DNA of 25,688 bases, taken from the IMG/VR virus record IMGVR_UViG_2925939204_000005; one strand, 5' to 3'. Shown here piece by piece: positions 4,770-24,014 of this stretch (position 1 is the first letter of the stretch; the number at the start of each line of letters is the position of its first letter). A program made the translations under genes and the position numbers. A model generated the notes under the pieces. That model ran no database searches. It was given only the letters and a program-made list of their open reading frames with translations, and was not told the origin of the DNA. The stretch is from a virus (Duplodnaviria > Heunggongvirae > Uroviricota > Caudoviricetes).

Positions 4770-4827
4770 AAAAACGGCGGCAGAGCAGTCACGGAGTAAA
4801 ACTGATACCGCCAAACGTCACCAGAAA
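4770..4827 (-). ncRNA. dicF: DicF small regulatory RNA (ftsZ-targeting antisense sRNA)
   Basis: Reverse complement of 4770..4827 reads TTTCTGGTGACGTTTGGCGGTATCAGTTTTACTCCGTGACTGCTCTGCCGCCGTTTTT, matching the remembered DicF sequence including the terminal GC-rich hairpin plus U-run; sits between ydfC and dicB. Confidence 0.85.
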
Positions 4828-5867: not shown

Positions 5868-6275
5868 TTATCTTTTATTTGTCCGCTGACGGGCTTTTAG
5901 TAATTCTTCAAAGAGTTTATTGAAGTTTTTTACTCGAGCTCGCATTTCGGCGAGCTGGGTATCCTGTTCTGATTCTGGCAGTGCATTAAACAGCTCAAGG
6001 AGCTCTAGTTCTTTGGGGGATAAGGCAACTGGCTTCTCAACAGGTGGTGTTGGTTGCTTGTCTTCATCGCCAAATAGAATCCATGTTGGTGAGCATTGCA
6101 ATACTTTGCTGAGGGCAAAAAGGTTCTTCCCTGTAGGTTCACTATCATCCCGTTCCCATTGTGATACAGACACATGGGAGATTTTCAGGGCTTTAGCAAG
6201 AGACCTTTGGGTGTGTTTGAGGTTTTTCCGACGATACCTAATGCGTTCGCCGATAGTTAAATTTTTTGTTTCCAT
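5868..6275 (-). CDS. dicA: HTH-type repressor DicA (Xre/cI-like, 135 aa)
   Basis: ORF 5868..6275 with an N-terminal Xre-type HTH (QRSLAKALKISHVSVSQWERD); sequence recognised as DicA; divergent from the dicC-like gene. Confidence 0.9.
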   Translation of the reverse strand: METKNLTIGERIRYRRKNLKHTQRSLAKALKISHVSVSQWERDDSEPTGKNLFALSKVLQCSPTWILFGDEDKQPTPPVEKPVALSPKELELLELFNALPESEQDTQLAEMRARVKNFNKLFEELLKARQRTNKR

Positions 6276-6358
6276 AGTTAGCTAATGCTAAATCGTATTG
6301 ACTATGTTTTTGTTAACATCTATTTTGTTAGTCATGACTAACAATAAAGGTGTTTTAA
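6276..6358. promoter_or_regulatory. Divergent dicA/dicC promoter-operator region
   Basis: 83-bp intergenic spacer between divergent repressor genes containing a perfect 18-bp palindrome TGTTAGTCATGACTAACA (6326..6343) plus shorter palindromes TGTTAACA (6311..6318) and TTAGCTAA (6278..6285). Confidence 0.6.
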
Positions 6359-6589
6359 ATGCTTAAAACTGACGCTCTTTTGTATTTCGGTTCAAAAACA
6401 AAACTTGCACAAGCAGCAGGTATTCGTTTGGCTTCGCTTTATAGCTGGAAAGGGGATTTAGTTCCCGAAGGTCGCGCGATGCGTCTACAGGAGGCATCTG
6501 GCGGGGAGCTTCAGTATGATCCCAAAGTTTATGATGAATATCGTAAGACGAAGCGGGCGGGGAGGTTGAACAATGAAAATCACTCCTGA
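6359..6589 (+). CDS. dicC: DicC (Cro-like regulator, 76 aa)
   Basis: ORF 6359..6589, divergent from dicA; sequence recognised as DicC. Confidence 0.8.
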   Translation: MLKTDALLYFGSKTKLAQAAGIRLASLYSWKGDLVPEGRAMRLQEASGGELQYDPKVYDEYRKTKRAGRLNNENHS

Positions 6590-7094
6590 ACAGGCTCGTG
6601 AGGCTCTGGATGCCTGGATATGTCGACCAGGAATGACACAGGAGCAGGCGACGATATTAATCACTGAAGCATTCTGGGCTTTGAAAGAGCGCCCGAACAT
6701 CGATGTTCAGCGTGTCACCGATGAAGGTGGCGCGGTTGATCAGCGAGCGCTTGGCGTTAATCGAGTGAAGATATTCGAACGCTGGAAGGCTATCGACACC
6801 AGGGATAAGCGTGAAAAGTTCACGGCGCTAGTGCCTGCGATTATGGAGGCTATCCGGATTAGTGATTTCAGGTTGTATCGTGAGATCAGTGATGGAAAAA
6901 GTATTACGTACATGATCGCCGGGTTAAATAAAGAATATGGCGATGTGGTGGAATCCGGACTGCTTTTTGCAGATCCTGCCGTTGTAGATCGTGAAACTGA
7001 CGAACTTATAGAAAAAGCAATTGCTTTCAAGCTTGCGTATCGACAGCAATACCAACAAAAAGCTGGATGGAATTATGAGTCTTCTTTTTGCTGA
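6573..7094 (+). CDS. Hypothetical early-right protein (173 aa), in the cII/YdaT-like position
   Basis: ORF with GGAGG SD 8 nt upstream; start overlaps the dicC 3' end by 17 nt. No recognised catalytic motif; function unknown. Confidence 0.55.
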   Translation: MKITPEQAREALDAWICRPGMTQEQATILITEAFWALKERPNIDVQRVTDEGGAVDQRALGVNRVKIFERWKAIDTRDKREKFTALVPAIMEAIRISDFRLYREISDGKSITYMIAGLNKEYGDVVESGLLFADPAVVDRETDELIEKAIAFKLAYRQQYQQKAGWNYESSFC

Positions 7095-8080: not shown

Positions 8081-8503
8081 GTGGCAAAAGTTTTTACACA
8101 AGAAGAGCGGGAAAAAATTAAAGGGCAGGTTGTTGAACTCGTACGCCGGAGTGGGCGTGAGACGTTACGGCAACTGGAAGTCAAGACAGGTGCGACAAGA
8201 TATCTGATGAGCGTTCTCGCAAGAGAGCTGGTTGCCAGCGGCGATGTATACAACTCTGGTTACGGGTTATTCCCGTCTGAACAGGCGCGTAAGGACTGGC
8301 AAAATGCCCGTAAAAAGCTCTCAAGGGCAAAGCTGAAGGAACCATCTGCGGTTGATCCGGACCTTATCTGGTCATTACCTGACGGAGAAATACGTCGCTA
8401 CGACAGGCGTCAGAACATAATCTGTCGCGAGTGCCGGAAGAGTGAAGTTATGCAGCGCATACTAGCATTCTATCAGGGAAATGCTCGATATTTATTGAAG
8501 TGA
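8081..8503 (+). CDS. Hypothetical protein (140 aa)
   Basis: GTG start at 8081 preceded by AGGAGGG SD. Basic protein with a CxxC motif (CRECRK); no helicase-loader signature, so it is not an obvious P/DnaC analogue. Confidence 0.5.
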   Translation: MAKVFTQEEREKIKGQVVELVRRSGRETLRQLEVKTGATRYLMSVLARELVASGDVYNSGYGLFPSEQARKDWQNARKKLSRAKLKEPSAVDPDLIWSLPDGEIRRYDRRQNIICRECRKSEVMQRILAFYQGNARYLLK

Positions 8504-8755
8504 TGAGATTAAAGTTTATTAGTTCAGATATTGATTGGCTCTTTTGTGGAGTAGGGTAGAGTTAGTGTGTTTGTCTGCTTGGTGCCAGCAGCGGATATGT
8601 TTAACAACAGAAAGCATTCAGCATGGTTAGTGGGTTTGCAAAGTGGATTAGGATTTGAGAAACTTTGATGAAGTTGTAAAGCTTGTTTCTATAAAAATAG
8701 AAATTTAACTAATAGTTAAACACACCTCCAGCTTCATTGAAAAGGATTATTAGCT

Positions 8756-9655
8756 ATGATTGATCCACTTATTAGAAACTTACAGAGTGATATTGCACTA
8801 CTCCAGCTTTATATCGCGCAACGCAAACAGGCAGGCTTTCATGACATGGAAAGAATAATTGAGTCATTGACCATCTTTATGTTTCGCGCGCTGAAAATGG
8901 GTGAACTGGTAAACATGAATCAGATTAAAGTTAATTTTCCCGCCATTGATTTAGCTGATAATAAAAACATGATAGCAGTTCAAGTTACTACGAATGCAAG
9001 TCCAGCAAAAATTAAAAAAACTATCGAATCTTTTGAGAAAATAAATGAAATAGGAGAGAGTCTGAAAGATAAATACTCTACTTTATATATTTTTGGTTTT
9101 TGTAAAGCCTCAAGATACCTAACTCCAAGTTATTGTAAAATAATCGACCCCAGCTATTTCGTGAATGAACTTTGCGATAAAGCAGATGAAGATATGGTCC
9201 AGGATATGATTGACGCCATTCGACGCCATCATGATTATACATCATTACATCCATGGAGTGATAAAGATTCACTCGAAATTATACTCAATATTATTAATCG
9301 CAATGCAATAAAACATCGGATGAGTTGCGAAGGCAGTCTGTCTGATATGCTCACTGGTTTAAAAGAAATTAATGAAGTAATTACAAAAGGAACAATTCAA
9401 CGTAAGCAACGTTCAAAATCGATATCTGACTTCAAAGATCAAAGCATGGTGAAATTTATGAGAGGTGTAATGGATGATTTGTCTGTTATTCAAGCCATAG
9501 TGAACAAATCTAAAGTTAACCAAGGTGATATGGTTTATATAAGCCATGAAGATATGATTAATATTGATAAATTAAAAGCTAAAATAGCAAGTGATTCATC
9601 AGAGATTGCAAGGCTAAATAATATTGATATAACACTAAATGTTGTTGATTTATAA
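8756..9655 (+). CDS. SMEK-domain-like protein (299 aa), candidate defence/abortive-infection cargo
   Basis: AT-rich gene with AAGGA SD. N-terminal region (NFPAIDLADNKNMIAVQVTTNASPAKIKKTIESF) matches my recollection of the SMEK domain (PAID-LAD ... IA-QVT). C-terminal about 170 aa have no recognised motif. Confidence 0.6.
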   Translation: MIDPLIRNLQSDIALLQLYIAQRKQAGFHDMERIIESLTIFMFRALKMGELVNMNQIKVNFPAIDLADNKNMIAVQVTTNASPAKIKKTIESFEKINEIGESLKDKYSTLYIFGFCKASRYLTPSYCKIIDPSYFVNELCDKADEDMVQDMIDAIRRHHDYTSLHPWSDKDSLEIILNIINRNAIKHRMSCEGSLSDMLTGLKEINEVITKGTIQRKQRSKSISDFKDQSMVKFMRGVMDDLSVIQAIVNKSKVNQGDMVYISHEDMINIDKLKAKIASDSSEIARLNNIDITLNVVDL

Positions 9656-9969
9656 TTGTCGATTTAGCAAAACAGAGAATGCTTTGAAAGTTTCACCGAG
9701 AAATATTTATTGTGAACCTCCTTATTGTTTATCGACTTTTACTCTCCGCTCATTGCAGTACTGTCGGAGAAGGCTACTATGTACAAGAAGCAGCTAACAT
9801 AAGCGAGCATCACTATTGATATTAGGAAGAGTATATAAAAACTTCATGCTGAACCTTACAAAAGTAGGTAAACCGGCAATGGCCTAAGTGGCAGGGTCAT
9901 GTTGATCCGGCAATGCCGAGCTAATAATTAACAAGCAAATCACTCTTTCTAATAATTTGTTGAAATAAA

Positions 9970-10629
9970 CTAAATATGTATATGTTTACCAACAACCACA
10001 TATGAACTACCTGCTTTGCTCCATGATTTTATTATTTCTAAATTATTATCTGAGCATATTTTACTTACAGTATCCACATCTAATAAACCATAGTAGAAAG
10101 CATTACGAGAGTTTTGGTATATATACCCATGCAAATGTTTAATACCGCTCTCGTACCTCTTGAAATAAGAACTTTTGTATTGATTGACAATCAGTGCTTC
10201 ACCATCACTCTTTAATAATTCTCTAATCGCACTGAGGACTTTGTGAATTGTGGATTCACATGGAATTGCGGAAAGCACGTTTGCGCAAAGTATGAAATCA
10301 TAATGATTTGTTATTTTATCTATATTTTCATAAGAAACAATATTAGCATTCTTATAGTTATTTATCACGTAATCTGGAATCGTGGTTTGTACACCTCTGA
10401 TAATTTGCACTCTTTCTAGTTGTCTTCTGGAATCTAAAAATGTCACAGTTTCAAATTTATTTACTAATTGTTCTGAATATCTAAGTTTTCCACATCCAAA
10501 ATCAAGGGCATTGCCATTTTTATTAGTGCTTTCAATCTGTTTACAGAGATAGTTAGATGGCATAGTGTGCGGTTTCGCTGCATTTTCTGAACGTATGTTT
10601 ATTCCATTTATTTTGTAATTCAAAATCAA
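9970..10629 (-). CDS. Class I SAM-dependent methyltransferase (about 217 aa)
   Basis: Motif I LDFGCGKLRY, acidic residue ending beta-2 (VTFLDS) and motif-II-like DFILCANVL. The ORF-track start at 10629 is TTG; a TTG at 10623 with GAGG 6 nt upstream is an alternative. The gene starts 6 nt after the upstream membrane-protein stop, suggesting an operon. Confidence 0.65.
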   Translation of the reverse strand: MILNYKINGINIRSENAAKPHTMPSNYLCKQIESTNKNGNALDFGCGKLRYSEQLVNKFETVTFLDSRRQLERVQIIRGVQTTIPDYVINNYKNANIVSYENIDKITNHYDFILCANVLSAIPCESTIHKVLSAIRELLKSDGEALIVNQYKSSYFKRYESGIKHLHGYIYQNSRNAFYYGLLDVDTVSKICSDNNLEIIKSWSKAGSSYVVVGKHIHI

Positions 10630-10635
10630 CCTCGT

Positions 10636-11331
10636 TTAAAAAATATTGTTATTGTTAAAGAATTCTTTTATTTTGCTATCAGGTATTTGTCTTACTTGGC
10701 TTTCTGTTCTTGGTTTAACTGATGCTATGAAAATAAGGAAGTCAAATGCGACAAGAGAAATAATCCACAACCAAAGATTAATTAAAGAGCCAGTAACAGA
10801 GAATATATTTGTTAATTTGGCGATACTTATTATTAAAATAGTAACAAATGCGATTACTGTATGTTCAAAGAAAACCCAAAAGTAATAAACTTTGTTCCAG
10901 AAAAGTTCAACGTAATGTTTGTCTTTTAACTCTTTAACTTCTGGGTAATACAGTTTACTCATTACCTTGTGAGATTCATCAGTAGTTAATTTTCTCGTAA
11001 CGCCTGCAATTTTTGCTAATGGTTTAATAATTAAATGACTATCCCACATCTTCCTTATTCCAATAATTTTTGCTACATTATTATGTAGATCTAAAGCTCC
11101 ACTAATTACTGACCAAAAAACTGAAGATGCAATTGGTAATATGCCAAAGGTTAATATCCATTTAATAAATTCCTCGTAGTCTTTAACGGGGGGGATATAC
11201 TTGGCATTAATGCCAACCAATGGCATGTAGCCATAAATGACTAATGATAGGTAAAATATAAATGTAGTAATAAAAGTCGCCTTATGGAGCATAGGCAACA
11301 TTTCATTATAACTCTTTGGTGGTTCTAACAT
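10636..11331 (-). CDS. Integral membrane protein (about 231 aa, about 4 predicted TM helices), unknown function
   Basis: ATG at 11331 with GGAG SD (the ORF-track start at 11343 is TTG). Hydrophobic stretches at about residues 20-45, 65-85, 150-180 and 190-215; AT-rich codon usage; first gene of a two-gene operon with the methyltransferase. Confidence 0.6.
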   Translation of the reverse strand: MLEPPKSYNEMLPMLHKATFITTFIFYLSLVIYGYMPLVGINAKYIPPVKDYEEFIKWILTFGILPIASSVFWSVISGALDLHNNVAKIIGIRKMWDSHLIIKPLAKIAGVTRKLTTDESHKVMSKLYYPEVKELKDKHYVELFWNKVYYFWVFFEHTVIAFVTILIISIAKLTNIFSVTGSLINLWLWIISLVAFDFLIFIASVKPRTESQVRQIPDSKIKEFFNNNNIF

Positions 11332-12073
11332 TTTACTCTCCAAACACTCAAAAAAAAGCTAATCTTCTATAATAACGAAATTCAGCTGGCACAATTAAAG
11401 ATTAATTGCCACCAATTTCTTGATTTTATAATTTTATCTAAATGTTTTTGATTAATCTAGTCCTAAAAGAAACCTACTGCATAAATATTTATGCTGATGA
11501 CCCACTCCCTGTTCGTTAACACATAGCAACGTTAGTAATGCATCCTAAGTGATCAATATTTTTGCTAGCTTCATCTGCTCGCTCAAAGGGAACTATAATG
11601 TTGGCTTGCGTGTGACTTGGCATGTTTAAAGAAGTGCTGGTGGTGACTGGTTGCTGTTTTCCATTTCCACAGAACAAAATCATAGAAACTATACCCAGTA
11701 GTTGTATTGAATCACTGACGAGACAGCCTCATATTTATCAGGACTGGTGTACGTCCAATACAGGAGGTTGTGGTGCTGGTTCTCAAATGTGCGCTGGCTA
11801 TTGCTGCTGTAATGGCAATTTATTGTCTTGCTGTTGTTCTTATGGATCACCTTTCTGATTGATTTCATATTGGCGAGGTAACGGTAGTTAAGTAGAATTG
11901 CTGCGGGTGCTTGAGGCTATCTGCCTCGGGCATCAACACCAAAGGCAGATAGAGAAAAGCCCCAGTTAACATTACGCGTCCGGCAAGACGCTTAACATTA
12001 ATCTGAGGCCATATCTATGCTCTACACACGTAGGTTAGCCTCTTACGTGCCGAAAGGCAAGGAGAAGCAGGCT

Positions 12074-12229
12074 ATGAAGCAGCAAAAGGCGATGCTAATC
12101 GCCCTGATCGTCATCTGTTTAACCGTCATAGTGACGGCACTGGTAACGAGGAAAGACCTCTGCGAGGTACGAATCCGAATCGGCCAGACGGAGGTCGCTG
12201 TCTTCACAGCTTACGAACCTGAGGAGTAA
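12074..12229 (+). CDS. hok: Hok-family type I toxin (51 aa; HokD/RelF-like)
   Basis: MKQQKAMLIALIVICLTVIVTALVTRKDLCEVRIRIGQTEVAVFTAYEPEE: single TM helix followed by the conserved Hok periplasmic tail; AAGGAGAAG SD upstream. The ORF-track start at 12017 is an in-frame upstream extension. Confidence 0.85.
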   Translation: MKQQKAMLIALIVICLTVIVTALVTRKDLCEVRIRIGQTEVAVFTAYEPEE

Positions 12230-14093: not shown

Positions 14094-14110
14094 TTTTGTG
14101 GAGTAAGTTG

Positions 14111-14488
14111 ATGCGTGATATTCAGATGGTTCTTGAGCGTTGGGGGGCATGGGCGGCTTATAATCATGAAGATGTGACCTGGTCGTCCATTGCCGCCGGT
14201 TTTAAGGGATTAATTCCTTCAAAAGTAAGATCTCGTCCGCAATGCTGTGACGATGACGTGATGATCATTTGTGAATGTATGGCTCGCCTGAAAAAAAACA
14301 ACAGCGATTTACATGATTTATTGGTGGACTATTATGTCGGCGGCATGACTTTTATGGCGCTTGCACGTAAGCATGGGCGATCTGATTGTTGGGTTGGCAG
14401 GATGCTCCAGAAAGCTGAGGGCGTAGTGGAGGGCATGCTGATGGTGTTGGATCTCCGATTGGAGATGGATGCTGATTGTTCGAAATAA
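14111..14488 (+). CDS. Late-gene antiterminator Q (QuuD/QuuQ-like)
   Basis: [16 protein letters not shown]...SRPQCCDDD...[16 protein letters not shown] resembles the remembered E. coli prophage Q proteins; ATG at 14111 with GGAG SD (the ORF-track start at 14096 is TTG). Confidence 0.85.
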
Positions 14489-14586
14489 TTAAAGGAAAAG
14501 TTGCTGTCTGATTTTCATTAGTCTAACATTTTAAATGTTGGAATCGCAACGTAGTTATTATCATATAACAGCTTGTTTCCTGATTT

Positions 14587-14618
14587 AGCCAGCCTCCCCA
14601 AAGGCTGGTTTTTTTTCT
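14587..14618 (+). terminator. Rho-independent terminator (tR'-like) downstream of Q
   Basis: AGCCAGCCTCCCCAAAGGCTGG followed by TTTTTTTT, about 100 nt downstream of Q, which is the expected place for the pR'/qut/tR' module. The promoter and qut themselves were not resolved. Confidence 0.7.
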
Positions 14619-14644: not shown

Positions 14645-15169
14645 TTATTGTTTAACCCATAATAGTTCATTGACATTGAATCCCAACTTTTGAGCGGTAC
14701 GCACATAGTCTGCTTTTACATTATCTGGAATAGTTTGGGTCCTTGCCAGAATCCATAGGTATTCTCTGTTCGGACCACTGACAAGAGCATACTTATACTC
14801 ATCATCCAGCTTGATTACATTATAGCCACCATAGAAGGGGCCAAAAAACGAAACTTTCAACGCTGCAGTTTTAGTATCTCCAGTAAAGTATGCTTTACCT
14901 TCGCTCTCGCTCCATTTGTTTTTCGTTGGATCGTATCCACGGTTAAGTACGCGAATCCCTCCGTCGTTCCGTTTTTCATAAGTAGCGCTGACCTGTTCCA
15001 GACCACGTTCGAACCAGTTCTCGAGGCGAGCTATTTCATACCATTTTCCGAGGTAGCGGTTGGCGTCAAAATTTGTAATCGGCTGCACACCTTTAGGTGG
15101 TGTCGGGGCCTTACATGCTATAAAAGTGAAAGAGAGTGCAATGCCAGTCAACACAGGCCATAACTTCAT
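14645..15169 (-). CDS. Bacterial lipocalin (Blc-like outer-membrane lipoprotein), moron
   Basis: 174 aa with a lipoprotein signal and lipobox (FTFIAC) and lipocalin motifs (NFDANRYLGKWYEIAR ... KVSFFGPFYGGYNVI), clearly homologous to but diverged from chromosomal Blc; opposite strand to the late operon. Confidence 0.85.
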   Translation of the reverse strand: MKLWPVLTGIALSFTFIACKAPTPPKGVQPITNFDANRYLGKWYEIARLENWFERGLEQVSATYEKRNDGGIRVLNRGYDPTKNKWSESEGKAYFTGDTKTAALKVSFFGPFYGGYNVIKLDDEYKYALVSGPNREYLWILARTQTIPDNVKADYVRTAQKLGFNVNELLWVKQ

Positions 15170-15361
15170 AATAAATCCTGTACTTTTGATAGTTGAGAGT
15201 AAGTATGAAAGATAGATGAGTACGACCGATCACTTAAAGAACTTTCCTACTATATTAGGAATAGTCAATAACAGAAAAATTGTCAGTGATGAAGCCAGAA
15301 AGGCAATTTAGTCCGTGCACTACAAAGTTTATGTGTTAATGAATTAGTCAAGGGGGAGGAA

Positions 15362-16321
15362 ATGATAAAAAAACCTGTGATTGGGATCAGCGGTTGTTTG
15401 GGCGGTTCTGCTGTTCGTTTTGATGGTGGTCACAAAAGAGATGACTTTTTAATGGACAAATTAGTGGAATGGGTAACATTCAGACCAGTATGTCCGGAAA
15501 TGGCTATAGGGCTGCCAGTTCCGCGTCCTGCTCTACGACTTGTGCGCTCGAAGCAAGGAAATATACGGATGTGTTTCAGCCACGACCAGAATGAGGATGT
15601 GACAGAGAGAATGACAGAGTTTAGTCGTTCTTATATGGACAAATTAAAGGATGTATCGGGGTTTGTGGTTTGTGCTAAATCTCCCAGCTGTGGCATGGAG
15701 CGCGTGCGTGTCTATGATGAAAATGGTAATCGAGGTCGTAAAGATGGAGTGGGACTATTTACGAGCACTTTGATGGAAAAGTTTTCCTGGCTACCGGTTG
15801 AAGAGGATGGGCGATTACATGATCCAGTGCTTCGTGAGAATTTTATTGAAAGAGTTTTTGCTTTGCATGAGCTCAATCATCTTTACAAGGAGAAATTATC
15901 AAGAAGAGAGTTATTAGCTTTTCATAGTCGTTATAAGCTTCAGTTGTTGGCGCATAGCCAGGCAGGCTATAAAGATATGGGACCATTTGTGGCTGCAATA
16001 CACGAGTGGGCGGACCTTGAATCATACTTTGAGGTGTATCGTGATAATCTGATGGCGATTCTCAGAAAACCAGCATCACGTAAAAATCACACGAATGTGC
16101 TGATGCATATACAGGGGTATTTTAGTAATTACTTAAGTACACGCCAGCGTAAAGAGTTGAGCGAGGTTATACTTAACTATCGCTTTGGCACATTGCCTCT
16201 TCTTGCGCCGTTGACTCTGCTGAAGCATTATCTGGGTGAGTATCCAAATGATTACTTGCTTACACAGAATTACTTCGATCCCTATCCGGAAGAACTGGCT
16301 CTAAGACTGATGGTGAATTAA
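15362..16321 (+). CDS. DUF523 + DUF1722 two-domain protein (YbgA/TudS-like), moron
   Basis: 319 aa with strong SD (AAGGGGGAGGAA). N-terminus has conserved Cys residues (GISGCLGG ... VCPE ... CAKSPSCG) typical of DUF523 (putative Fe-S, thiouracil-desulfidase-like) domains; C-terminal half resembles the YbgA-type DUF1722 domain. Confidence 0.75.
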   Translation: MIKKPVIGISGCLGGSAVRFDGGHKRDDFLMDKLVEWVTFRPVCPEMAIGLPVPRPALRLVRSKQGNIRMCFSHDQNEDVTERMTEFSRSYMDKLKDVSGFVVCAKSPSCGMERVRVYDENGNRGRKDGVGLFTSTLMEKFSWLPVEEDGRLHDPVLRENFIERVFALHELNHLYKEKLSRRELLAFHSRYKLQLLAHSQAGYKDMGPFVAAIHEWADLESYFEVYRDNLMAILRKPASRKNHTNVLMHIQGYFSNYLSTRQRKELSEVILNYRFGTLPLLAPLTLLKHYLGEYPNDYLLTQNYFDPYPEELALRLMVN

Positions 16322-16480
16322 CTGTATGCGATATCATCTGAAAGTGATGAGTTCCTGTATGCAGGATATTTACAATCGTAAAAACTACGCTATGATGCCC
16401 ATAGTGTCAGTTTGTATAAAAATGCGGTGATGCTGCCAACTTACTGATTTAGTGTATGATGGTGTTTTTGAGGTGCTCCA

Positions 16481-16756
16481 GTGGCTTCTGTTTCTATCAG
16501 CTGTCCCTCCTGTTCAGCTACTGACGGGGTGGTGCGTAACGGCAAAAGCACCGCCGGACATCAGCGCTATCTCTGCTCTCACTGCCGTAAAACATGGCAA
16601 CTGCAGTTCACTTACACCGCTTCTCAACCCGGTACGCACCAGAAAATCATTGATATGGCCATGAATGGCGTTGGATGCCGGGCAACTGCCCGCATTATGG
16701 GCGTTGGCCTCAACACGATTTTACGTCACTTAAAAAACTCAGGCCGCAGTCGGTAA
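16481..16756 (+). CDS. insA: IS1 InsA (91 aa)
   Basis: [40 protein letters not shown]...: canonical InsA with zinc-finger and HTH. Confidence 0.9.
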
Positions 16757-17178
16757 CCTCGCGCATACAGCCGGGCAGTGACGTCATCGTCTGCGCGGAA
16801 ATGGACGAACAGTGGGGCTATGTCGGGGCTAAATCGCGCCAGCGCTGGCTGTTTTACGCGTATGACAGTCTCCGGAAGACGGTTGTTGCGCACGTATTCG
16901 GTGAGCGCACTATGGCGACGCTGGGGCGTCTTATGAGCCTGCTGTCACCCTTTGACGTGGTGATATGGATGACGGATGGCTGGCCGCTGTATGAATCCCG
17001 CCTGAAGGGAAAGCTGCACGTAATCAGCAAACGATATACGCAGCGAATTGAGCGGCATAACCTGAATCTGAGGCAGCACCTGGCACGGCTGGGACGGAAG
17101 TCGCTGTCGTTCTCAAAATCGGTGGAGCTGCATGACAAAGTCATCGGGCATTATCTGAACATAAAACACTATCAATAA
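16675..17178 (+). CDS. insB: IS1 InsB frame (167-aa annotated ORF; expressed as InsAB' by -1 frameshifting)
   Basis: [21 protein letters not shown]...: canonical InsB reading frame; the A-run slippery site lies in the insA/insB overlap. Confidence 0.85.
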
Positions 17179-17252
17179 GTTGGAGTCATTACCCTTCTTT
17201 CCTTCTTCGAACCAAACCGTGTACACCATCCGTTATCTGCGGAGGTGAGGCT

Positions 17253-17468
17253 ATGAAATCCATGGATAAGTTAACAACGGGCATCGCCTACAGCACCTCT
17301 GCAGGCAGTGCTGGCTACTGGTTTTTACAGTTGCTCGATAAAGTCACGCCCTCACAGTGGGCGGCAATAGGTGTGCTGGGTAGCCTGGTATTTGGCCTGC
17401 TGACGTACCTGACAAACCTTTATTTCAAGATTAAAGAAGATAAGCGCAAGGCTGCGAGAGGTGAATAA
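17253..17468 (+). CDS. Class II holin (phage 21 S / EssD-like pinholin, 71 aa)
   Basis: [24 protein letters not shown]...: two TM segments, dual-start motif (Met1/Met4), charged C-terminus; GGAGGTGAGG SD. Confidence 0.85.
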
Positions 17469-17965
17469 TGCCTCCATCATTACGAAAAGCCGTTGCTGCT
17501 GCTATTGGTGGCGGAGCAATTGCTATAGCATCAGTGTTAATTACTGGCCCAAGTGGTAACGATGGTCTGGAAGGTGTCAGCTACATACCATACAAAGATA
17601 TTGTTGGTGTATGGACTGTATGTCACGGGCATACAGGAAAAGACATCATGTTCGGTAAAACGTATACCAAAGCAGAATGCAAAGCCCTCCTGAATAAAGA
17701 CCTTGCCACGGTCGCCAGACAAATTAACCCGTACATCAAAGTCGATATACCGGAAACAATGCGCGGCGCTCTTTACTCATTCGTTTACAACGTGGGTGCT
17801 GGCAATTTCAGAACATCGACGCTTCTTCGCAAAATAAACCAGGGCGATATCAAAGGCGCATGTGATCAGCTACGTCGCTGGACATATGCTGGCGGTAAGC
17901 AATGGAAAGGTCTCATGACTCGTCGTGAGATTGAGCGTGAAATCTGTTTGTGGGGTCAGCAATGA
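17468..17965 (+). CDS. SAR endolysin (T4-lysozyme-like muramidase, phage 21 R-like)
   Basis: N-terminal Gly/Ala-rich signal-anchor-release segment ([18 protein letters not shown]) and catalytic E-x8-D-x5-T triad ([16 protein letters not shown]); start overlaps the holin stop. Confidence 0.85.
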
Positions 17966-18423
17966 ACAGAGTAACCGCGATTATCTCCGCTCTGGTTATC
18001 TGCATCATCGTCGGCCTGTCATGGGCTGTTAATCATTACCGTGATAACGCCATTACCTACAAAGCCCAGCGCGACAAAAATGCCAGAGAACTGAAGCTGG
18101 CGAACGCGGCAATTACTGACATGCAGATGCGTCAGCGTGATGTTGCTGCGCTCGATGCAAAATACACGAAGGAGTTAGCTGATGCGAAAGCTGAAAATGA
18201 TGCTCTGCGTGATGATGTTGCCGCTGGTCGTCGTCGGTTGCACATCAAAGCAGTCTGTCAGTCAGTGCGTGAAGCCACCACCGCCTCCGGCGTGGATAAT
18301 GCAGCCTCCCCCCGACTGGCAGACACCGCTGAACGGGATTATTTCACCCTCAGAGAGAGGCTGATCACTATGCAAAAACAACTGGAAGGAACCCAGAAGT
18401 ATATTAATGAGCAGTGCAGATAG
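17962..18423 (+). CDS. Rz i-spanin
   Basis: [21 protein letters not shown]...: N-terminal TM anchor followed by a coiled-coil-rich periplasmic domain; start overlaps the endolysin stop. Confidence 0.8.
18182..18364 (+). CDS. Rz1 o-spanin (lipoprotein embedded in Rz in the +1 frame)
   Basis: 60-aa ORF wholly inside Rz: signal peptide with lipobox Cys (LVVVGC) and proline-rich mature region ([15 protein letters not shown]). Confidence 0.75.
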
Positions 18424-18454: not shown

Positions 18455-18748
18455 TTATTGTGAGCAATACACACGCGCTTCCAGCGGAGTATAAATGCCT
18501 AAAGTAATAAAACCGAGCAATCCATTTACGAATGTTTGCTGGGTTTCTGTTTTAACAACATTTTCTGCGCCGCCACAAATTTTGGCTGCATCAACAGTTT
18601 TCTCCTGTCCAATTCCCGAAACGAAGAAGTGATGGGTGATGGTTTCCTTTGGTGTTACTGCTGTCGGTTTGTTTCCAACAGTAAACGTCTGTTGAGCACA
18701 TCCTGTAATAAGCATTGCCAGAGCGGCAGAAAACAACATTTTTTTCAT
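18455..18748 (-). CDS. bor: Bor lipoprotein (serum-resistance protein, 97 aa)
   Basis: Internal Met of ORF 18455..18796: MKKMLFSAALAMLITGCAQQTFTVGNKPTAVTPKETITHHFFVSGIGQ..., recognised as lambda Bor; lipobox LITGC; opposite strand downstream of Rz as in lambda. Confidence 0.85.
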   Translation of the reverse strand: MKKMLFSAALAMLITGCAQQTFTVGNKPTAVTPKETITHHFFVSGIGQEKTVDAAKICGGAENVVKTETQQTFVNGLLGFITLGIYTPLEARVYCSQ

Positions 18749-19976: not shown

Positions 19977-21287
19977 ATGGGTTTTTCATCAGCCCGAAAT
20001 TTGGGAAGGGACATATCGGCAGGATTTTCCCCACCACGTCGCATGCCGATTTCGGAGGCTGTTAAAAAATTCATGCGTGTTCCCAAGGGGGCTGGTAACT
20101 CGGTGCCATGGGATCCTGAACTGACACCCTACATCATTGAGCCCATGAACTGCCTGGCATCGCGTGAATACGATGCGGTGATTTTTGTTGGTCCTGCGCG
20201 AACAGGGAAGACCATTGGTCTGATCGATGGATGGATTGTCTATACCATCGTTTGCGATCCTTCGGACATGCTCGTTGTGCAGATGACCGAAGATAAGGCC
20301 CGCGAGCATTCTAAAAAGCGCCTCGACAGAACGTTCAGAAGCAGTGCGGCGGTAAAGAAAAGAATGAGTCCACGTCGTAACGACAATAATGTCCATGATA
20401 AGACGTTCAGGGATGGCTCGTTCCTTAAAATTGGTTGGCCCTCGGTCAACATTATGTCGTCGTCGGATTACCGGTTTGTCGCCTTAACCGATTACGACCG
20501 TTTTCCGGAGAATATCGACAGCGAGGGTGATGGTTTCTCCCTGGCCTCAAAACGTACCACCACATTTATGTCCGCCGGGATGACTCTGGTGGAGAGCTCG
20601 CCGGGACGTGACATCTGCGACAGCAAATGGCGACGTAAGTCGCCTCATGAAGCGCCACCGACGACTGGTATTCTTTCCCTTTACAATCGTGGTGACCGCC
20701 GCCGCTGGTACTGGCCATGTCCGCACTGCGGTGAATATTTTCAGCCAGCTATGGATGCCATGACCGGCTACCGTAATGAACCGGATCCCTTTAAAGCCAG
20801 TGAGGCGGCGTATCTACTTTGCCCACACTGCAGCGGCATTATCACTGCGGAGAAAAAGCGTGAGCTCAATAGTGCAGGAGTCTGGTTGCGTGAAGGTCAG
20901 GTCATTGATCGTAACGGCAACGTTTCCGGTGAACCGCGCCGCTCCCGTATCGCCAGTTTCTGGATGGAAGGGCCAGCTGCTGCGTATCAGGCCTGGGCGC
21001 AACTGGTTTACAAATTACTGACTGCAGAACAGGAGTATGAAGCGACAGGAAGAGAAGAAACACTCAGGGCGGTTATCAACACCGACTGGGGATTACCTTA
21101 TCTTCCCCGCGCCAGCATGGAGCAACGAAAAAGTGAACTGCTTGAGCAGCGGGCAGAGCCAGTTCCTTCCCGCAGTGTGCCAGATGGCGTTAATTTCCTT
21201 GTGGCGACAGTGGATGTGCAGGCGGGACGTCATCGCCGTTTTGTGGTTCAGGTACCGGAGTCGGAAGTTGCCGGACCCTGCAGATGA
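19977..21287 (+). pseudogene. Terminase large subunit, C-terminally truncated (first about 425 codons only)
   Basis: AGGAGG SD; zinc-ribbon-like motif WYWPCPHCGEYFQ comparable to lambda gpA. The frame ends about 10 codons after [19 protein letters not shown], at the start of the expected nuclease domain, where the sequence switches to tail-fibre sequence. Confidence 0.8.
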
Positions 21288-22090
21288 AGGCGCATTACAG
21301 AAATGGTGGTCTGTTCTACCGTTCTTCAAGAGACGGTTATGGTTTTGAGGAAGGCTGGGCAGAAGTTTATACCTCGAAAAATCTTCCACCAGAAAGCTAC
21401 CCAGTCGGCGCACCAATCCCGTGGCCATCAGATACCGTTCCGTCTGGTTATGCCCTGATGCAGGGGCAGACTTTTGACAAATCTGCCTACCCAAAACTTG
21501 CAGCCGCTTATCCGTCAGGCGTGATCCCTGATATGCGTGGCTGGACGATTAAGGGCAAACCTGCCAGTGGTCGGGCCGTATTGTCTCAGGAACAGGACGG
21601 CATTAAATCGCACACCCACAGCGCCAGCGCATCCAGTACGGATTTGGGGACGAAAACCACATCGTCGTTTGATTACGGAACCAAATCCACGAATAACACC
21701 GGGGCGCATACCCATAGTATTAGCGGGACCGCAAATAGTGCCGGTGCGCACCAACACAAGAGTTCCGGTGCATTTGGTGGCACGAACACGAGCATTTTCC
21801 CTAATGGTTATACCGCGATTTCAAATCTAAGCGCGGGGATTATGAGCACAACAAGCGGTAGTGGCCAGACTCGTAATGCAGGGAAGACATCATCAGATGG
21901 TGCTCATACCCACTCGCTGTCCGGCACTGCTGCAAGCGCAGGCGCACATGCACATACTGTCGGTATTGGTGCTCATACGCACTCCGTTGCGATTGGCTCA
22001 CATGGACACACCATCACCGTTAACGCTGCTGGTAACGCGGAAAACACCGTCAAAAACATCGCATTTAACTATATTGTGAGGCTTGCATAA
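21284..22090 (+). pseudogene. Side tail fibre protein (Stf) C-terminal fragment
   Basis: 268-aa ORF with G-A-H-T/Q-H-S repeats and the conserved ending [14 protein letters not shown] typical of lambdoid Stf C-termini; the N-terminal part (typically several hundred codons) is missing. The true 5' boundary is the deletion junction near 21250..21285. Confidence 0.75.
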
Positions 22091-22671
22091 TGGCATTCAG
22101 AATGAGTGAACAAGCACGGACCATAAAAATTTATAATCTGCTGGCCGGAACTAATGAATTTATTGGTGAAGGTGACGCATATATTCCGCCTCATACAGGT
22201 CTGCCAGCAAACAGTACCGATATTGCACCACCAGATATTCCGGCAGGCTTCGTGGCTGTTTTCAACAGTGATGAGGCATCGTGGCATCTCGTTGAAGACC
22301 ATCGGGGTAAAACGGTTTATGACGTGGCTTCCGGCGACGCGTTATTTATTTCTGAACTCGGTCCGTTACCGGAAAATGTTACCTGGTTGTCGCCGGGAGG
22401 GGAATATCAGAAGTGGAACGGCACAGCCTGGGTGAAGGATACGGAAGCAGAAAAACTGTTCCGGATCCGGGAGGCAGAAGAAACAAAAAACAGCCTGATG
22501 CAGGTAGCCAGTGAGCATATTGCGCCACTTCAGGATGCTGTAGATCTGGAAATCGCAACGGAGGAAGAAATCTCGTTGCTGGAAGCCTGGAAGAAGTATC
22601 GGGTGTTGCTGAACCGTGTTAATACAACAACTGCACCGGATATTGAATGGCCAGTAGCACCTATAGGGTAA
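22090..22671 (+). CDS. Tail fibre assembly protein Tfa (193 aa)
   Basis: ATG overlaps the stf stop (TAATG); conserved C-terminal motif [29 protein letters not shown]. Confidence 0.85.
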
Positions 22672-23259
22672 ATTCGTAATGATTACCTAAATACGTTATT
22701 CTTTTGTTCAAAAAGTGATTTTGCTATAGGTAGGGAGTATGTTCTTGGATTAAGAATAAAAATCGCCATGAAAGAGCTTCATGGCGAGTACATAAACGTA
22801 CAAAATATGATGAAAGTAGAGTGGCGTAAGCCACTATATTAAGATATGACAATAGCGAAGAAAAGTAAATAACATTTTATGGGCGTTTAATTGTCAATTA
22901 TAAAAACTAGAGTGCCCGATATTGTTTATCTTGCTTTAAAATAATGTACTCAAACCAAATTTTTGAGCTAAAAGCTCAAATAATATAAATGCAATGATAA
23001 TGTTTAATAAGACAATTAGCTTGCTTTGTATTTTCATTTCGGAATACTGTTAAGTAACTTTGATGACACTAACAATAGATCGGAATTTTCTTAGAGTCAA
23101 TGGTCACTGTTTTTGCTTGCAAAGCAAATGTTTTTGGTGGTTATAAGTTTTCTTAATATAGTCACCTATGCAACTTGTTCCTTGTGGAGATTAAAGGTTA
23201 AAATTTAATGCGAAGATGGAATTATAATATATTTTTTTATAATTAATTTAACCTTAACA

Positions 23260-23358
23260 TCGTTGCTGGCGGCATGGAAGAAATATCGGGTCTTGCTGAT
23301 GTCGTGTTGGCACTTCCTTAGTGCGGTTATCGAATGGCCAGCTGTACCTGTGGGGTAA
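23260..23358 (+). pseudogene. Fossil tfa 3' end (C-terminal about 33 codons only)
   Basis: Aligns by eye to the 3' end of tfa (22566..22671) and translates to [32 protein letters not shown]-stop. No upstream tfa body; AT-rich flanks. Confidence 0.6.
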
Positions 23359-24014
23359 AAACTTTATATGGGTGCTATTTTTATAATAGCTGGTAAAAAC
23401 TGGCCGAACTGAAATTCACTGTTGATAAAAAAGATGTGTTTGAGTGTATGTCATTGTTTTCTTAATGGAATCCACTAGAATGCAGCGAATTTAAGAAGGT
23501 GGGTTTTTATTGGAATATAAACTACAATAATGCTCAACTCGTTCGTAGAATTGTTTTTTCTTATTTTTTGGAATGCTAACCATTATATGCATTATGGGGG
23601 CGATACTTCCTGATAATTTACATGATGCATACATTGAAGCAATAAATTCAATATCATTGTCATCAAAGTTAAAGCTTTCTCCGTCCATTTCAATTCCTTA
23701 TGTGTTTGGCACAACTGATGCTGTATCCCATGAGAATTTATGCAAGTTGTTATGTTTGATTTGATATTGCAATGATAATTGTAGCTAATTGTTTTCAATT
23801 GAGTGAAAGTTTATTTCGAGTGATTAAGTCGAAAAAAAAGATTTCTCACGGTTAGTAAGCGTATTAGGTTAGTATTCAGATATGAATGGTATTAATGACT
23901 AAATTTTCAATCATATATGGATTTTTATGCTGATGAAGATGTTTTATTTGGCGATTCGTCAAGCATCTTCACTTAAGTAATCGTATATTTTAAGAGTGCA
24001 AAAGAGAAAGGGAC

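Follow-up and report, generated by a model that had tools for sequence, protein, structure and literature searches.

We analysed the interval between the antiterminator gene Q and the lysis genes in a 25,688-nucleotide stretch of DNA (IMG/VR record IMGVR_UViG_2925939204_000005; hereafter, the window). The window is a defective lambda-like, Qin-type Escherichia coli prophage with two intact passenger genes. Its terminase gene is truncated and abuts a tail-fibre fragment, and morphogenesis genes have been deleted, which leaves the prophage defective; positions 1541-25688 are 99.98% identical to E. coli strain 165, an extra IS3 in that strain excepted. The Q gene (14111..14488, + strand) encodes a late-gene antiterminator of the PF06530 family (Pfam Phage_antitermQ, 9.6e-50) and is annotated as such by RefSeq in the identical strain 165 sequence; the mechanically called open reading frame (ORF) runs from a TTG codon at 14096, and the RefSeq start lies at 14111. 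Downstream on the same strand are a candidate pR' late promoter (14501..14529), read from the sequence as a -35 element TTGCTG and a -10 element TAACAT with a 17-bp spacer, and an intrinsic terminator in the lambdoid tR' position (14587..14617; 9-bp GC-rich stem, 6-nt loop, U8), detected by terminator scans.

Two divergent genes come next, separated by an AT-rich spacer of 192 bp (15170..15361). The first, blc2 (14645..15169, - strand), encodes a predicted Blc-type outer-membrane lipoprotein lipocalin of 174 aa, and the second, rudS (15362..16321, + strand), encodes a 319-aa fusion of TudS (DUF523) and DUF1722 domains and is co-oriented with the late operon. An earlier note on this DNA had placed both ORFs exactly to the base, and its identification of a Blc-type lipocalin and a DUF523-DUF1722 fusion agrees with Pfam and NCBIfam. 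The same note had missed an IS1 element of 768 bp (16426..17193, + strand) between rudS and the holin gene, which we delimited by BLAST breakpoints against phages 1H12 and IdasGreatGrand and E. coli strain 98232, by the IS1 ends and by the RefSeq annotation IS1A. The element stands in place of 1,053 bp present in intact relatives, comprising an AraC-type ORF, the counterpart of 1H12 gp67 (HTH_18/AraC), and a second terminator (6874-6895 of record L002, terminator scan). The lysis cassette (17253..18423, + strand; ORFs, Pfam and the RefSeq names essD/rrrD/rzpD) consists of a P21-type holin S (17253-17468; Pfam Phage_holin_2_1, 2.1e-34), the endolysin R, a lysozyme (17468-17965; Pfam Phage_lysozyme, 2.4e-45), Rz (about 17962-18423; RzpD in RefSeq for strain 165) and the Rz1 ORF embedded in Rz (18182-18364). 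A bor/iss-type lipoprotein moron (18455..18748, - strand) marks the end of the lysis region, and its ORF is named 'increased serum survival lipoprotein Iss' by RefSeq in the identical strain 165 sequence.

Family assignment of RudS and Blc2

Pfam assigns residues 7-149 of the 319-aa protein to 2-thiour_desulf/DUF523 (PF04463, 5.8e-40) and residues 192-309 to DUF1722 (PF08349, 9.4e-40), and the protein matches phrog_3275. Its alignment with TudS in the PDB spans the C-x31-CPE...PRP...SPSCG motifs and sets Cys12, Cys44 and Cys110 against TudS Cys10, Cys43 and Cys104, the Fe-S ligands of the solved structure, a correspondence on which the earlier note had staked its assignment in advance. Glu46, Arg55, Ser107 and Ser109 (motifs CPE46, PR55P and S107-P-S109-C) align with TudS as well, and these residues, with the three cysteines, are invariant across 24 homologues. 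An AF2 model (pLDDT 76, pTM 0.79), made from an input alignment that left out the 1H12 sequence, finds significant fold matches in the PDB to TudS entries only, with probability 1.00. Stand-alone DUF523 proteins of the TudS type (PDB 6z92-6z96, 6zw9) share the fold and the Fe-S and catalytic motifs with the N-terminal half of RudS, but they lack DUF1722 and are only 25-28% identical to it.

The model of E. coli YbgA (b0707), a stand-alone DUF1722 protein with no catalytic domain and no effect on s4U (PMC11417400), matches only residues 161-315 of the window RudS. The YbgA equivalog NF007549 calls for a single-domain protein of about 169 aa with a whole-protein score above the cut-off, and RudS scores 189.1 bits against a cut-off of 237. 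This low score and the extra catalytic domain make 'YbgA family protein', the RefSeq name of the window RudS, misleading, and the name conceals a characterised enzyme family. All the RudS family features that we checked by sequence were found, namely the two-domain fusion, the cluster cysteines and the catalytic Glu/Ser/Ser/Arg residues, and on this basis the 319-aa protein belongs to RudS, a characterised family of tRNA 4-thiouridine desulfidases.

RudS_vir (gp66, YP_009909557) of Escherichia phage 1H12, likewise of 319 aa, is 92% identical to the window protein with no gaps, and none of the 26 substitutions falls at a ligand or catalytic position; the RudS_vir ligands (Table 1, PMC11417400) occupy the same positions as Cys12, Cys44 and Cys110. 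Its neighbours in 1H12 are also those of the window (Q, an opposite-strand blc and the lysis genes after), with 91.4% DNA identity over the whole cassette, but in the window, unlike 1H12, the surrounding prophage is defective and IS1 has removed the AraC-type ORF downstream of rudS. Overexpression of RudS_vir in E. coli lowered tRNA s4U (Jamontas 2024, NAR, PMC11417400), as did every RudS variant assayed, the evidence for activity being plasmid overexpression throughout. In the same work, RudS_KT mutants of the catalytic Glu51, Ser111 and Ser113 and of the orienting Arg60 were inactive, Asn202, Asn203, Ser243, Arg244 and Thr246 were implicated in tRNA binding, and RudS_KT overexpression reduced the UVA growth delay. 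Within the DUF1722 half of the window protein, Ser239, Arg240 and Thr244 do not vary between the enterobacterial homologues. Homology to the assayed RudS_vir shows the window allele to be a predicted s4U-tRNA desulfidase. The suggestion in the earlier note that the enzyme might act on tRNA was correct, and needed less caution than the word 'speculative' conveyed, as the fusion is a published family with a closely similar phage allele already assayed.

These assays also bear on a different emphasis, in which phage RudS, much like stand-alone TudS, would mainly recycle or detoxify free thiolated bases and nucleotides (4-thiouracil, 4-thio-UMP from tRNA turnover) and so feed pyrimidine pools in lytic growth, with tRNA erasure as a side activity. 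RudS_vir, though well expressed, desulfidated tRNA more weakly than the other RudS proteins, and on 4-thiouracil it rescued a uracil auxotroph best, with the shortest lag of them all (PMC11417400), which suggests that tRNA may be neither its sole nor its main substrate; PMC10611767 reports that TudS enzymes recycle 4-thio-UMP, and the RudS catalytic domain is TudS-like. No RudS, however, supported growth as TudS did, and all RudS proteins lowered tRNA s4U, whereas stand-alone TudS, whose substrates are free thiouracil and 4-thio-UMP, did not lower it in vivo (PMC11417400). Moreover, purifying selection acts on the tRNA-binding DUF1722 half, which is conserved throughout, and cellular s4U would be a small source of pyrimidine. 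We consider a salvage enzyme of this kind quite unlikely, and retain tRNA s4U erasure as the preferred reading.

The 174-aa product of blc2 belongs to Lipocalin_2 (PF08212, 7.5e-43, Pfam), passes the NCBIfam Blc subfamily model NF007786 (311.8 bits against a cut-off of 267), aligns end to end with the Blc structures 3mbt/1qwd (8.5e-67, PDB), matches phrog_2809 and is 95% identical to 1H12 gp65. Its N-terminus, read from the sequence as MKLWPVLTGIALSFTFIAC19-KAPTPP, has the features of a type II signal peptide, with Cys19 in the lipobox position and, at +2, Lys instead of the inner-membrane retention signal Asp, and Cys19 directly precedes the residues that align with Blc from position 20 onward. 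Family membership shows Blc2 to be a Blc-type lipocalin and a predicted outer-membrane lipoprotein; phage blc is already listed as a common lambda moron, found in >50% of intestinal lambda phages (Mathieu 2020).

The earlier description of this protein as a diverged paralogue of the chromosomal Blc holds at the family level, canonical E. coli Blc (chromosomal, ampC-linked) having family, size and the Cys19 lipobox in common with Blc2, but not as to descent. Blc2 is 61% identical to K-12 Blc and 60% identical to the Citrobacter-derived blc of CMY-2 plasmids, and its identity to rudS-linked chromosomal lipocalins is 75-79% for most and 68-70% for two. The phage Blc is nested among the rudS-linked lipocalins in a neighbour-joining (NJ) tree, and Blc2 did not come out as an ortholog of the ampC/sugE-linked chromosomal blc. 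Judged by these comparisons, Blc2 is a paralogous lineage distinct from canonical blc, derived from the rudS-linked lineage and not from the E. coli gene. The 61% identity, the tree position and the GC content led us to reject a recent duplication of E. coli blc. What points to a possible functional link between Blc2 and RudS is gene adjacency; a literature search for lipocalins in LitR or light-responsive regulons returned nothing relevant, and the supplement of the RudS paper (PMC11417400) contains no mention of a lipocalin or Blc.

Expression signals and late-operon context

The earlier note had credited both genes with independent expression signals, which is borne out for translation, ribosome-binding sites being visible for blc2 and rudS, but not for transcription. 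A sigma-70 consensus scan returned no promoter match in the 192-bp spacer, and matches in the region were at shuffle background (7 found against 5.1 +/- 2.2 expected); the 1H12 scan was also at shuffle background, and its 9/12 match is lost in the window allele. The consensus scan did not pick up the candidate pR' either, of which the -35 element is invariant and the -10 element keeps TAnnnT across five phage alleles. The spacer presumably holds promoters of its own for blc2 and rudS.

The hairpin in the tR' position has a predicted RNA fold of -26.8 kcal/mol (z = -4.0) and is invariant in the five alleles, where the surrounding spacer is 96% identical as against about 91% in the flanking genes. 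Over the cassette, an Rfam search at gathering thresholds and at E <= 1 gave one sub-threshold match, on this terminator hairpin (30.5 against 50 bits), and ARAGORN found no tRNA genes. The terminator at 14587..14617 separates Q and pR' from the cargo genes, which in intact relatives are flanked by terminators on both sides; in the window the downstream one was deleted, with IS1 in its place. A strong, conserved + strand terminator just after Q would place rudS within the Q-dependent late transcription unit, and blc2 lies antisense to the late transcript. Q-antiterminated late transcription would in that case read through rudS and run antisense across blc2, and expression in an uninduced lysogen would need promoters within the 192-bp spacer.

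Distribution, conservation and origin of the cassette

That the interval between Q and the lysis genes is a moron site, as first proposed from the window, is confirmed by relatives with the same gene order. The succession Q, blc(-), rudS(+), AraC-type ORF, S, R, Rz occurs in phages 1H12 and IdasGreatGrand, in E. coli 042 and strain 98232, and in 61 of 80 IMG/VR contigs, and the cassette lies between Q and S in every relative compared. It is inserted among conserved phage genes, is missing from other lambdoid phages and, at 43-44% GC, is atypical in composition beside Q and the lysis genes (47-49%); in these respects it is a moron. The blc2-rudS cassette is real and ordinary, and has already been described in near-identical phages. 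The classical lambdoid Q-S cargo, stx of Stx phages, occupies the same slot downstream of pR'/tR', where cargo expression can be coupled to Q-dependent late transcription, but it is a toxin, whereas the window cargo is a predicted tRNA-modification eraser and a lipocalin; lipoprotein morons such as bor are known too, and bor/iss is also present in the window. The paper on prophage phiv142-3 (PMC7724020) proved unrelated to the cassette.

Both genes are full-length in 78 of the 80 viral contigs from IMG/VR. Among 5,426 complete E. coli genomes, 1,152 (about 21%) are positive for the cassette, and 1,046 of these keep at least 80% of it in one place. Of 40 E. coli records drawn at even intervals from the match ranking, 10 had an IS insertion or a truncation, and one more was a trivial 5% match. 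E. coli B strains have a truncated copy, and the BL21/B lineage, the strain background of the published RudS assays (PMC11417400), keeps only a 49-codon rudS stump. Taken over alleles with DNA differences up to 8%, the dN/dS values of rudS (0.11-0.20) and blc (0.07-0.24) resemble that of Q, which argues for long-term purifying selection on both genes. Pseudogenisation in related prophages, which the earlier note had named as a danger to its reading, is accordingly not the rule, the genes being mostly intact. The occurrence in about 21% of E. coli, the rudS-linked lipocalin lineage and the purifying selection were not found in the literature searched. Papers up to July 2026, including recent reviews, state that E. 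coli is without RudS, a statement contradicted by a prophage rudS in about one fifth of its genomes.

The pair could also be silent leftovers of a decaying prophage in this strain, with intactness reflecting recent common ancestry. The state of the window fits such an account: the prophage is defective, with a truncated terminase and lost morphogenesis genes, IS1 adjoins rudS, the scan found no promoter, and disruptions occur among the sampled E. coli records. Silence is nevertheless hard to reconcile with the purifying selection, with the retention of the cassette across most positive genomes and nearly all viral contigs, and with its presence in inducible, plaque-forming phages, and we regard it as very unlikely. 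Maintained cargo is the reading that we carry forward.

Chromosomal RudS proteins (RudS_ST/ORF319, STM1389, of Salmonella; RudS_KT, PP_0741, of Pseudomonas) have the two-domain layout and catalytic residues in common with the phage protein, and those of enterobacteria are also 319 aa long and 66-76% identical to it. Chromosomal rudS usually follows a MerR/MlrA-type regulator, plus a transthyretin-like gene in the Enterobacter group; the phage copy lacks both and, unlike its chromosomal counterparts, lies behind a phage late promoter region and has a much lower GC content. We sampled 64 species-level chromosomal rudS loci, two of which are fragments of E. coli prophage that had been binned with another MAG. 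In 43 of the 64, blc2 lies divergently upstream of rudS, with merR and the transthyretin-like gene in between in 36 of the 43 and the two genes directly adjacent, as in the phage, in two. Aligned with the spacers of the directly adjacent pairs in Citrobacter sedlakii and Citrobacter sp. JGM124, the phage spacer is conserved only at the coding ends, and no MerR-type or other shared operator was recognisable.

The phage genes have a GC content of 43% (GC3 40%), below all the chromosomal orthologues sampled, whose minimum is 47% and median 58%, which implies that the donor is unsampled or the capture old. No other phage capture came up when IMG/VR was scanned with RudS of the Klebsiella and Enterobacter types, and the matches of an alignment-based IMG/VR scan all belonged to the E. 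coli prophage lineage, at 97-100% identity; the comparison points to a single capture of the pair by phage. It also supports a chromosomal origin en bloc, in which blc2(-) and rudS(+), arranged around a merR-type regulator and a transthyretin-like gene on an enterobacterial chromosome, would have been taken as a unit, the regulator being lost in the phage version.

This chromosomal setting weighs on a further possibility, which builds on the role in phage conflict raised in the earlier note: RudS may be used for attack or counter-attack between phage and host or between phages, for instance by altering tRNAs in a way that affects a tRNA-targeting defence or a superinfecting phage. Transfer RNA is a frequent target in phage conflicts, and rudS sits in a hotspot for lambdoid host-interaction cargo. 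Against a conflict role, s4U8 lies in the tRNA core and not in the anticodon loop recognised by known tRNA nucleases, the chromosomal orthologues lie not in defence islands but in a locus of the stress type that includes a MerR regulator, neither RudS nor Blc2 matches any PADLOC defence model, and no paper linking RudS or s4U8 erasure to phage defence was found in the literature searched. We therefore do not uphold the suggestion and deem it highly improbable.

A predicted prophage-borne tRNA-modification eraser

Taken as a whole, the evidence makes it likely, in our judgement, that the cassette is what survives of a three-gene moron block of chromosomal origin, wired into the late operon and encoding a RudS tRNA eraser and Blc2. 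Lambdoid E. coli phages of the 1H12/Qin type have such a block between Q and holin, with blc2(-) and rudS(+) as its survivors in the window and the third gene, the AraC-type regulator(+), deleted by IS1. In RudS, Cys12, Cys44 and Cys110 would hold a [4Fe-4S] cluster with a free fourth iron, to which the sulfur of 4-thiouridine at tRNA position 8 would bind, while Glu46, positioned by Arg55, Ser107 and Ser109, would activate a water molecule to convert s4U to U, the helical DUF1722 half holding the tRNA. Blc2 would bind lipid, anchored via Cys19 in the outer membrane. Lower s4U8 would remove the near-UV chromophore whose crosslink to C13 causes the UVA growth delay and the ppGpp burst, and its removal may keep translation going in a lysogen or in a sunlight- or UV-induced cell; Blc2 may add an envelope-lipid function to the same stress response.

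A stronger version, which we put forward as unlikely though conceivable, is a form of 'sunlight insurance', in which the pair, taken en bloc from a MerR-controlled locus, stripped of its MerR-type regulator and put behind pR'/tR', would free s4U8 erasure, and perhaps envelope protection, from the host signal and tie it to the prophage. Solar UV would induce the prophage by way of DNA damage while the accompanying UVA would cause no tRNA crosslink, ppGpp response or stall, and the burst would be secured.

The cassette offers a tidy example of how cargo genes can be captured en bloc, here from a conserved stress locus on the chromosome, and for phage biology it would place a tRNA-modification eraser in the late-operon slot of the Shiga toxin. 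How much s4U a strain contains, and how it responds to UVA in growth delay and ppGpp, could be prophage-encoded, and, should the insurance proposal be true, a prophage would set roughly a fifth of E. coli strains apart from K-12 and B in tRNA s4U level and near-UV physiology.

RudS, the lipocalin and their relation to assayed proteins

ORF calling finds both genes exactly at the place given in the earlier note: a lipocalin gene, blc2, on the minus strand at 14645-15169 (174 aa; Pfam Lipocalin_2, 7.5e-43) and rudS on the plus strand at 15362-16321 (319 aa), to which Pfam assigns a 2-thiour_desulf/DUF523 domain at residues 7-149 (5.8e-40) and then a DUF1722 domain at residues 192-309 (9.4e-40). 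The NCBIfam YbgA equivalog covers only the C-terminal half of the 319-aa protein and falls short of its cut-off (189 versus 237 bits). The DUF523-DUF1722 fusion is RudS, a characterised family of tRNA 4-thiouridine (s4U) desulfidases (Jamontas et al. 2024, PMC11417400). One of the enzymes assayed in that study, RudS_vir, is gp66 of Escherichia phage 1H12, whose cassette has the same gene order as that of the window and 91.4% DNA identity to it, the two RudS proteins being 92% identical over 319 residues without gaps.

The ligand positions of RudS_vir (Cys12, Cys44 and Cys110; PMC11417400) are all found in the window RudS. In a phmmer alignment to the solved structure of TudS, the stand-alone DUF523 desulfidase, Cys12 lies opposite TudS Cys10, and the CPE (Cys44, Glu46), PRP (Arg55) and SPSC (Ser107, Ser109, Cys110) motifs are aligned; these residues are invariant in 24 homologues. 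The conserved cysteines recognised in the earlier note are therefore in line with the Fe-S ligands of characterised family members. An AlphaFold model of RudS (pLDDT 76, pTM 0.79) gives significant PDB fold matches to TudS entries alone (probability 1.00; target-normalised TM 0.57-0.67), and its C-terminal half consists entirely of helices and has no solved relative among the PDB matches. Overexpression of every RudS variant in E. coli lowered tRNA s4U, mutants of the Pseudomonas enzyme RudS_KT at the equivalent Glu, Ser, Ser and Arg were inactive, and RudS_KT reduced the UVA-induced growth delay (PMC11417400). Homology to these assayed proteins shows the window RudS to be a predicted [4Fe-4S] desulfidase turning tRNA s4U into U. 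RudS_vir acted on tRNA less than expected from its protein level and was the best at sustaining growth on 4-thiouracil (PMC11417400), which leaves room for a role in thionucleotide salvage; we regard this minor alternative as unlikely and retain tRNA desulfidation as the preferred reading.

The lipocalin Blc2 passes the curated cut-off of the NCBIfam Blc subfamily (311.8 versus 267 bits), and its Cys19 directly precedes the stretch aligned with solved E. coli Blc structures, from their position 20 through to the C-terminus. Homology to assayed proteins again shows Blc2 to be a Blc-type outer-membrane lipoprotein lipocalin. Its identity is 61% to K-12 Blc over the mature part and 60% to the canonical blc that CMY-2 plasmids carry, which is Citrobacter-derived; it is thus no copy of E. 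coli blc. Phage blc has been described as a moron carried by over half of the lambda-type coliphages of the intestine, in a report that makes no mention of the gene adjoining it (Mathieu et al. 2020, PMC6969025).

Gene order and transcription signals in the prophage

The cassette follows genes for a DUF968/HNH protein and a PF06530 antiterminator Q, and precedes a P21-type holin, a lysozyme and then ORFs named RzpD and Iss/Bor by RefSeq in E. coli strain 165, whose Qin-type prophage is 99.98% identical to the window and has one extra IS3. Between rudS and the holin lies an IS1 (16426-17193), overlooked in the earlier note. Comparison with phage 1H12, phage IdasGreatGrand and strain 98232 reveals that it stands in place of 1,053 bp (5869-6921 in the intact relative L002), which normally hold a 243-aa AraC-type HTH gene (1H12 gp67, phrog_1450) and an intrinsic terminator just 5′ of the holin. 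The ends of the IS1 show no 9-bp target duplication, which fits a deletion mediated by the element itself. The usual order of Q, blc (minus), rudS (plus), AraC-type gene, S and R, intact in 61 of 80 IMG/VR contigs, includes the AraC-type gene, and the native cargo block therefore comprises three genes, this being the third and the other two surviving in the window. The prophage, whose first gene is an integrase, is defective, since at 19977-22090 a terminase large subunit shortened to 436 aa directly abuts a tail-collar/tail-fibre fragment; a single deletion therefore took out the head and tail morphogenesis genes.

An intrinsic terminator between Q and the lipocalin gene (14587-14617, plus strand; 9-bp stem followed by U8; fold z-score -4.0) is invariant in five alleles, and the Q-blc spacer is conserved at 96%, versus about 91% for the flanking genes. 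This terminator occupies the same position as tR′ of lambdoid phages, and a candidate pR′ (14501-14529, plus strand; TTGCTG, 17 bp, TAACAT) lies 5′ of it. Potentially, therefore, rudS belongs to the Q-dependent late transcription unit and is coupled to late transcription; it is co-directional with the lysis genes, and the lipocalin gene is antisense to the unit. Together, the candidate pR′ and terminator (14501-14617) would yield a short transcript of ~80 nt, comparable to the 6S RNA of lambda or to StxS, an sRNA of Stx phages; no Rfam family reaches gathering score in this spacer. Independent expression signals had also been proposed for both genes. Plausible ribosome-binding sites are present on each, but a consensus promoter scan gave zero matches in the 192-bp divergent spacer and promoter matches over the whole region equal the shuffle background (7 versus 5.1 ± 2.2), so that independent expression is no more than plausible for a moron. 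The spacer yields no alignment with its chromosomal counterparts.

Elsewhere in the window, a low-GC island in the early region (8500-11500; 30-36% GC) holds an SMEK_N-domain protein (8756-9655, plus strand) whose N-terminus matches PADLOC model PDLC02399 (1.4e-20), a class I SAM methyltransferase (9970-10629, minus strand) and a 235-aa ORF without family (10636-11343, minus strand), and may be defence-type cargo. For the cassette itself there is no PADLOC match and no literature link was found, and a role in conflict or defence appears highly improbable. Rfam hits above gathering score comprise DicF sRNA (4775-4826, minus strand), sok antitoxin RNA (11905-12079, plus strand; adjoining hokD) and IS009 RNA (22433-22631, plus strand), located where a second stretch of low GC (22500-24000) begins.

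Chromosomal relatives and origin of the pair

Our survey of species-representative genomes covered 64 rudS loci, of which two are fragments of E. coli prophage binned into another MAG. In 36 of the 64, blc2 on the minus strand is followed on the plus strand by a MerR/MlrA-type regulator, a transthyretin-like gene and rudS; three loci lack the transthyretin-like gene and one has it without the regulator. In two (C. sedlakii and Citrobacter sp. JGM124), blc2 and rudS are immediate, divergent neighbours, which is also the phage arrangement. The phage pair therefore looks like the chromosomal blc2-rudS unit minus its regulator. The 36 loci with the full set of four genes, L025 (4021-6960) among them, make up a cluster conserved on the chromosomes of Enterobacter, Leclercia and related genera, in which a transthyretin/HIUase-like gene adjoins rudS.

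The nearest relatives of Blc2 (75-79% identity) are lipocalin genes divergently upstream of chromosomal rudS, in hosts including Enterobacter, Leclercia, Pseudenterobacter, Citrobacter sedlakii and others, and the phage lipocalins nest among them in a neighbor-joining tree without bootstrap support. Phage RudS is 66-76% identical to chromosomal RudS proteins. The GC content of the phage copies (43%; GC3 40%) is far lower than that of the chromosomal ones (median 58%, GC3 70%; minimum 47%), so the capture was either old or from an unsampled donor. IMG/VR scans with Klebsiella- and Enterobacter-type RudS found no further phage-borne RudS lineages, and the alignment-based scan returned only E. 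coli prophage copies (97-100% identical), which points to a probable single capture followed by spread among E. coli lambdoid phages.

Beyond Escherichia, the phage-type allele occurs only on two short contigs (L056 and L061) of the Candidatus Nanosynbacter MAG D148_maxbin.008; these carry Q-blc-rudS-holin sequence of the E. coli phage type with 92-97% protein identity and are most likely E. coli prophage DNA misbinned into this Saccharibacteria MAG. A truncated, unannotated rudS-linked lipocalin (residues 1-110, 79% identity) is present on some E. coli and Enterobacter plasmids (CP042872.1, CP123602.1 and NZ_CP071862.1), and chromosomal loci L035 and L036 have the same truncation; the plasmid-borne fragment suggests that part of a rudS-linked chromosomal locus was mobilised.

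Maintenance and significance

The cassette is present in 1,152 of 5,426 complete E. coli genomes, 1,046 of which retain 80% or more of it at a single site; among 40 records taken evenly across the hit ranking, six have IS insertions and four are partial copies. Comparing the alleles of the window, 1H12 and IdasGreatGrand pair by pair gives dN/dS values of 0.11-0.20 (rudS) and 0.07-0.24 (blc), which resemble those of Q (0.07-0.11). General pseudogenisation in related prophages, envisaged in the earlier note, is thus not observed, and it seems improbable to us that blc2 and rudS are a silent leftover in a defective prophage. In the E. coli B lineage (NEBExpress, L070 5802-5948), blc is kept and rudS is reduced to its first 49 codons by an IS3-associated deletion. 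BL21(DE3), the host of the published RudS overexpression assays, belongs to this lineage with the rudS stump.

The finding is real, correctly located and already known, since RudS_vir of a near-identical cassette has been assayed and phage blc catalogued as a moron; both proteins have PHROG families of their own. Nothing in the literature searched reports the conserved chromosomal blc2-merR-ttr-rudS neighbourhood, and hence that the phage pair arose en bloc, the presence of prophage copies of RudS in about one fifth of E. coli genomes, or the placement of rudS behind a tR′-like terminator; published papers repeatedly state that E. coli lacks RudS. Neighbourhood, prevalence and tR′ placement constitute useful footnotes and testable predictions that will not surprise a specialist. 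Presumably uncoupled from the MerR-type regulator that controls the ancestral locus, phage RudS would lower s4U at tRNA position 8 and may thereby render the lysogen or induced cell less prone to UVA-induced tRNA crosslinking, growth delay and stringent response, with the lipocalin as the envelope-acting member of one and the same stress module.
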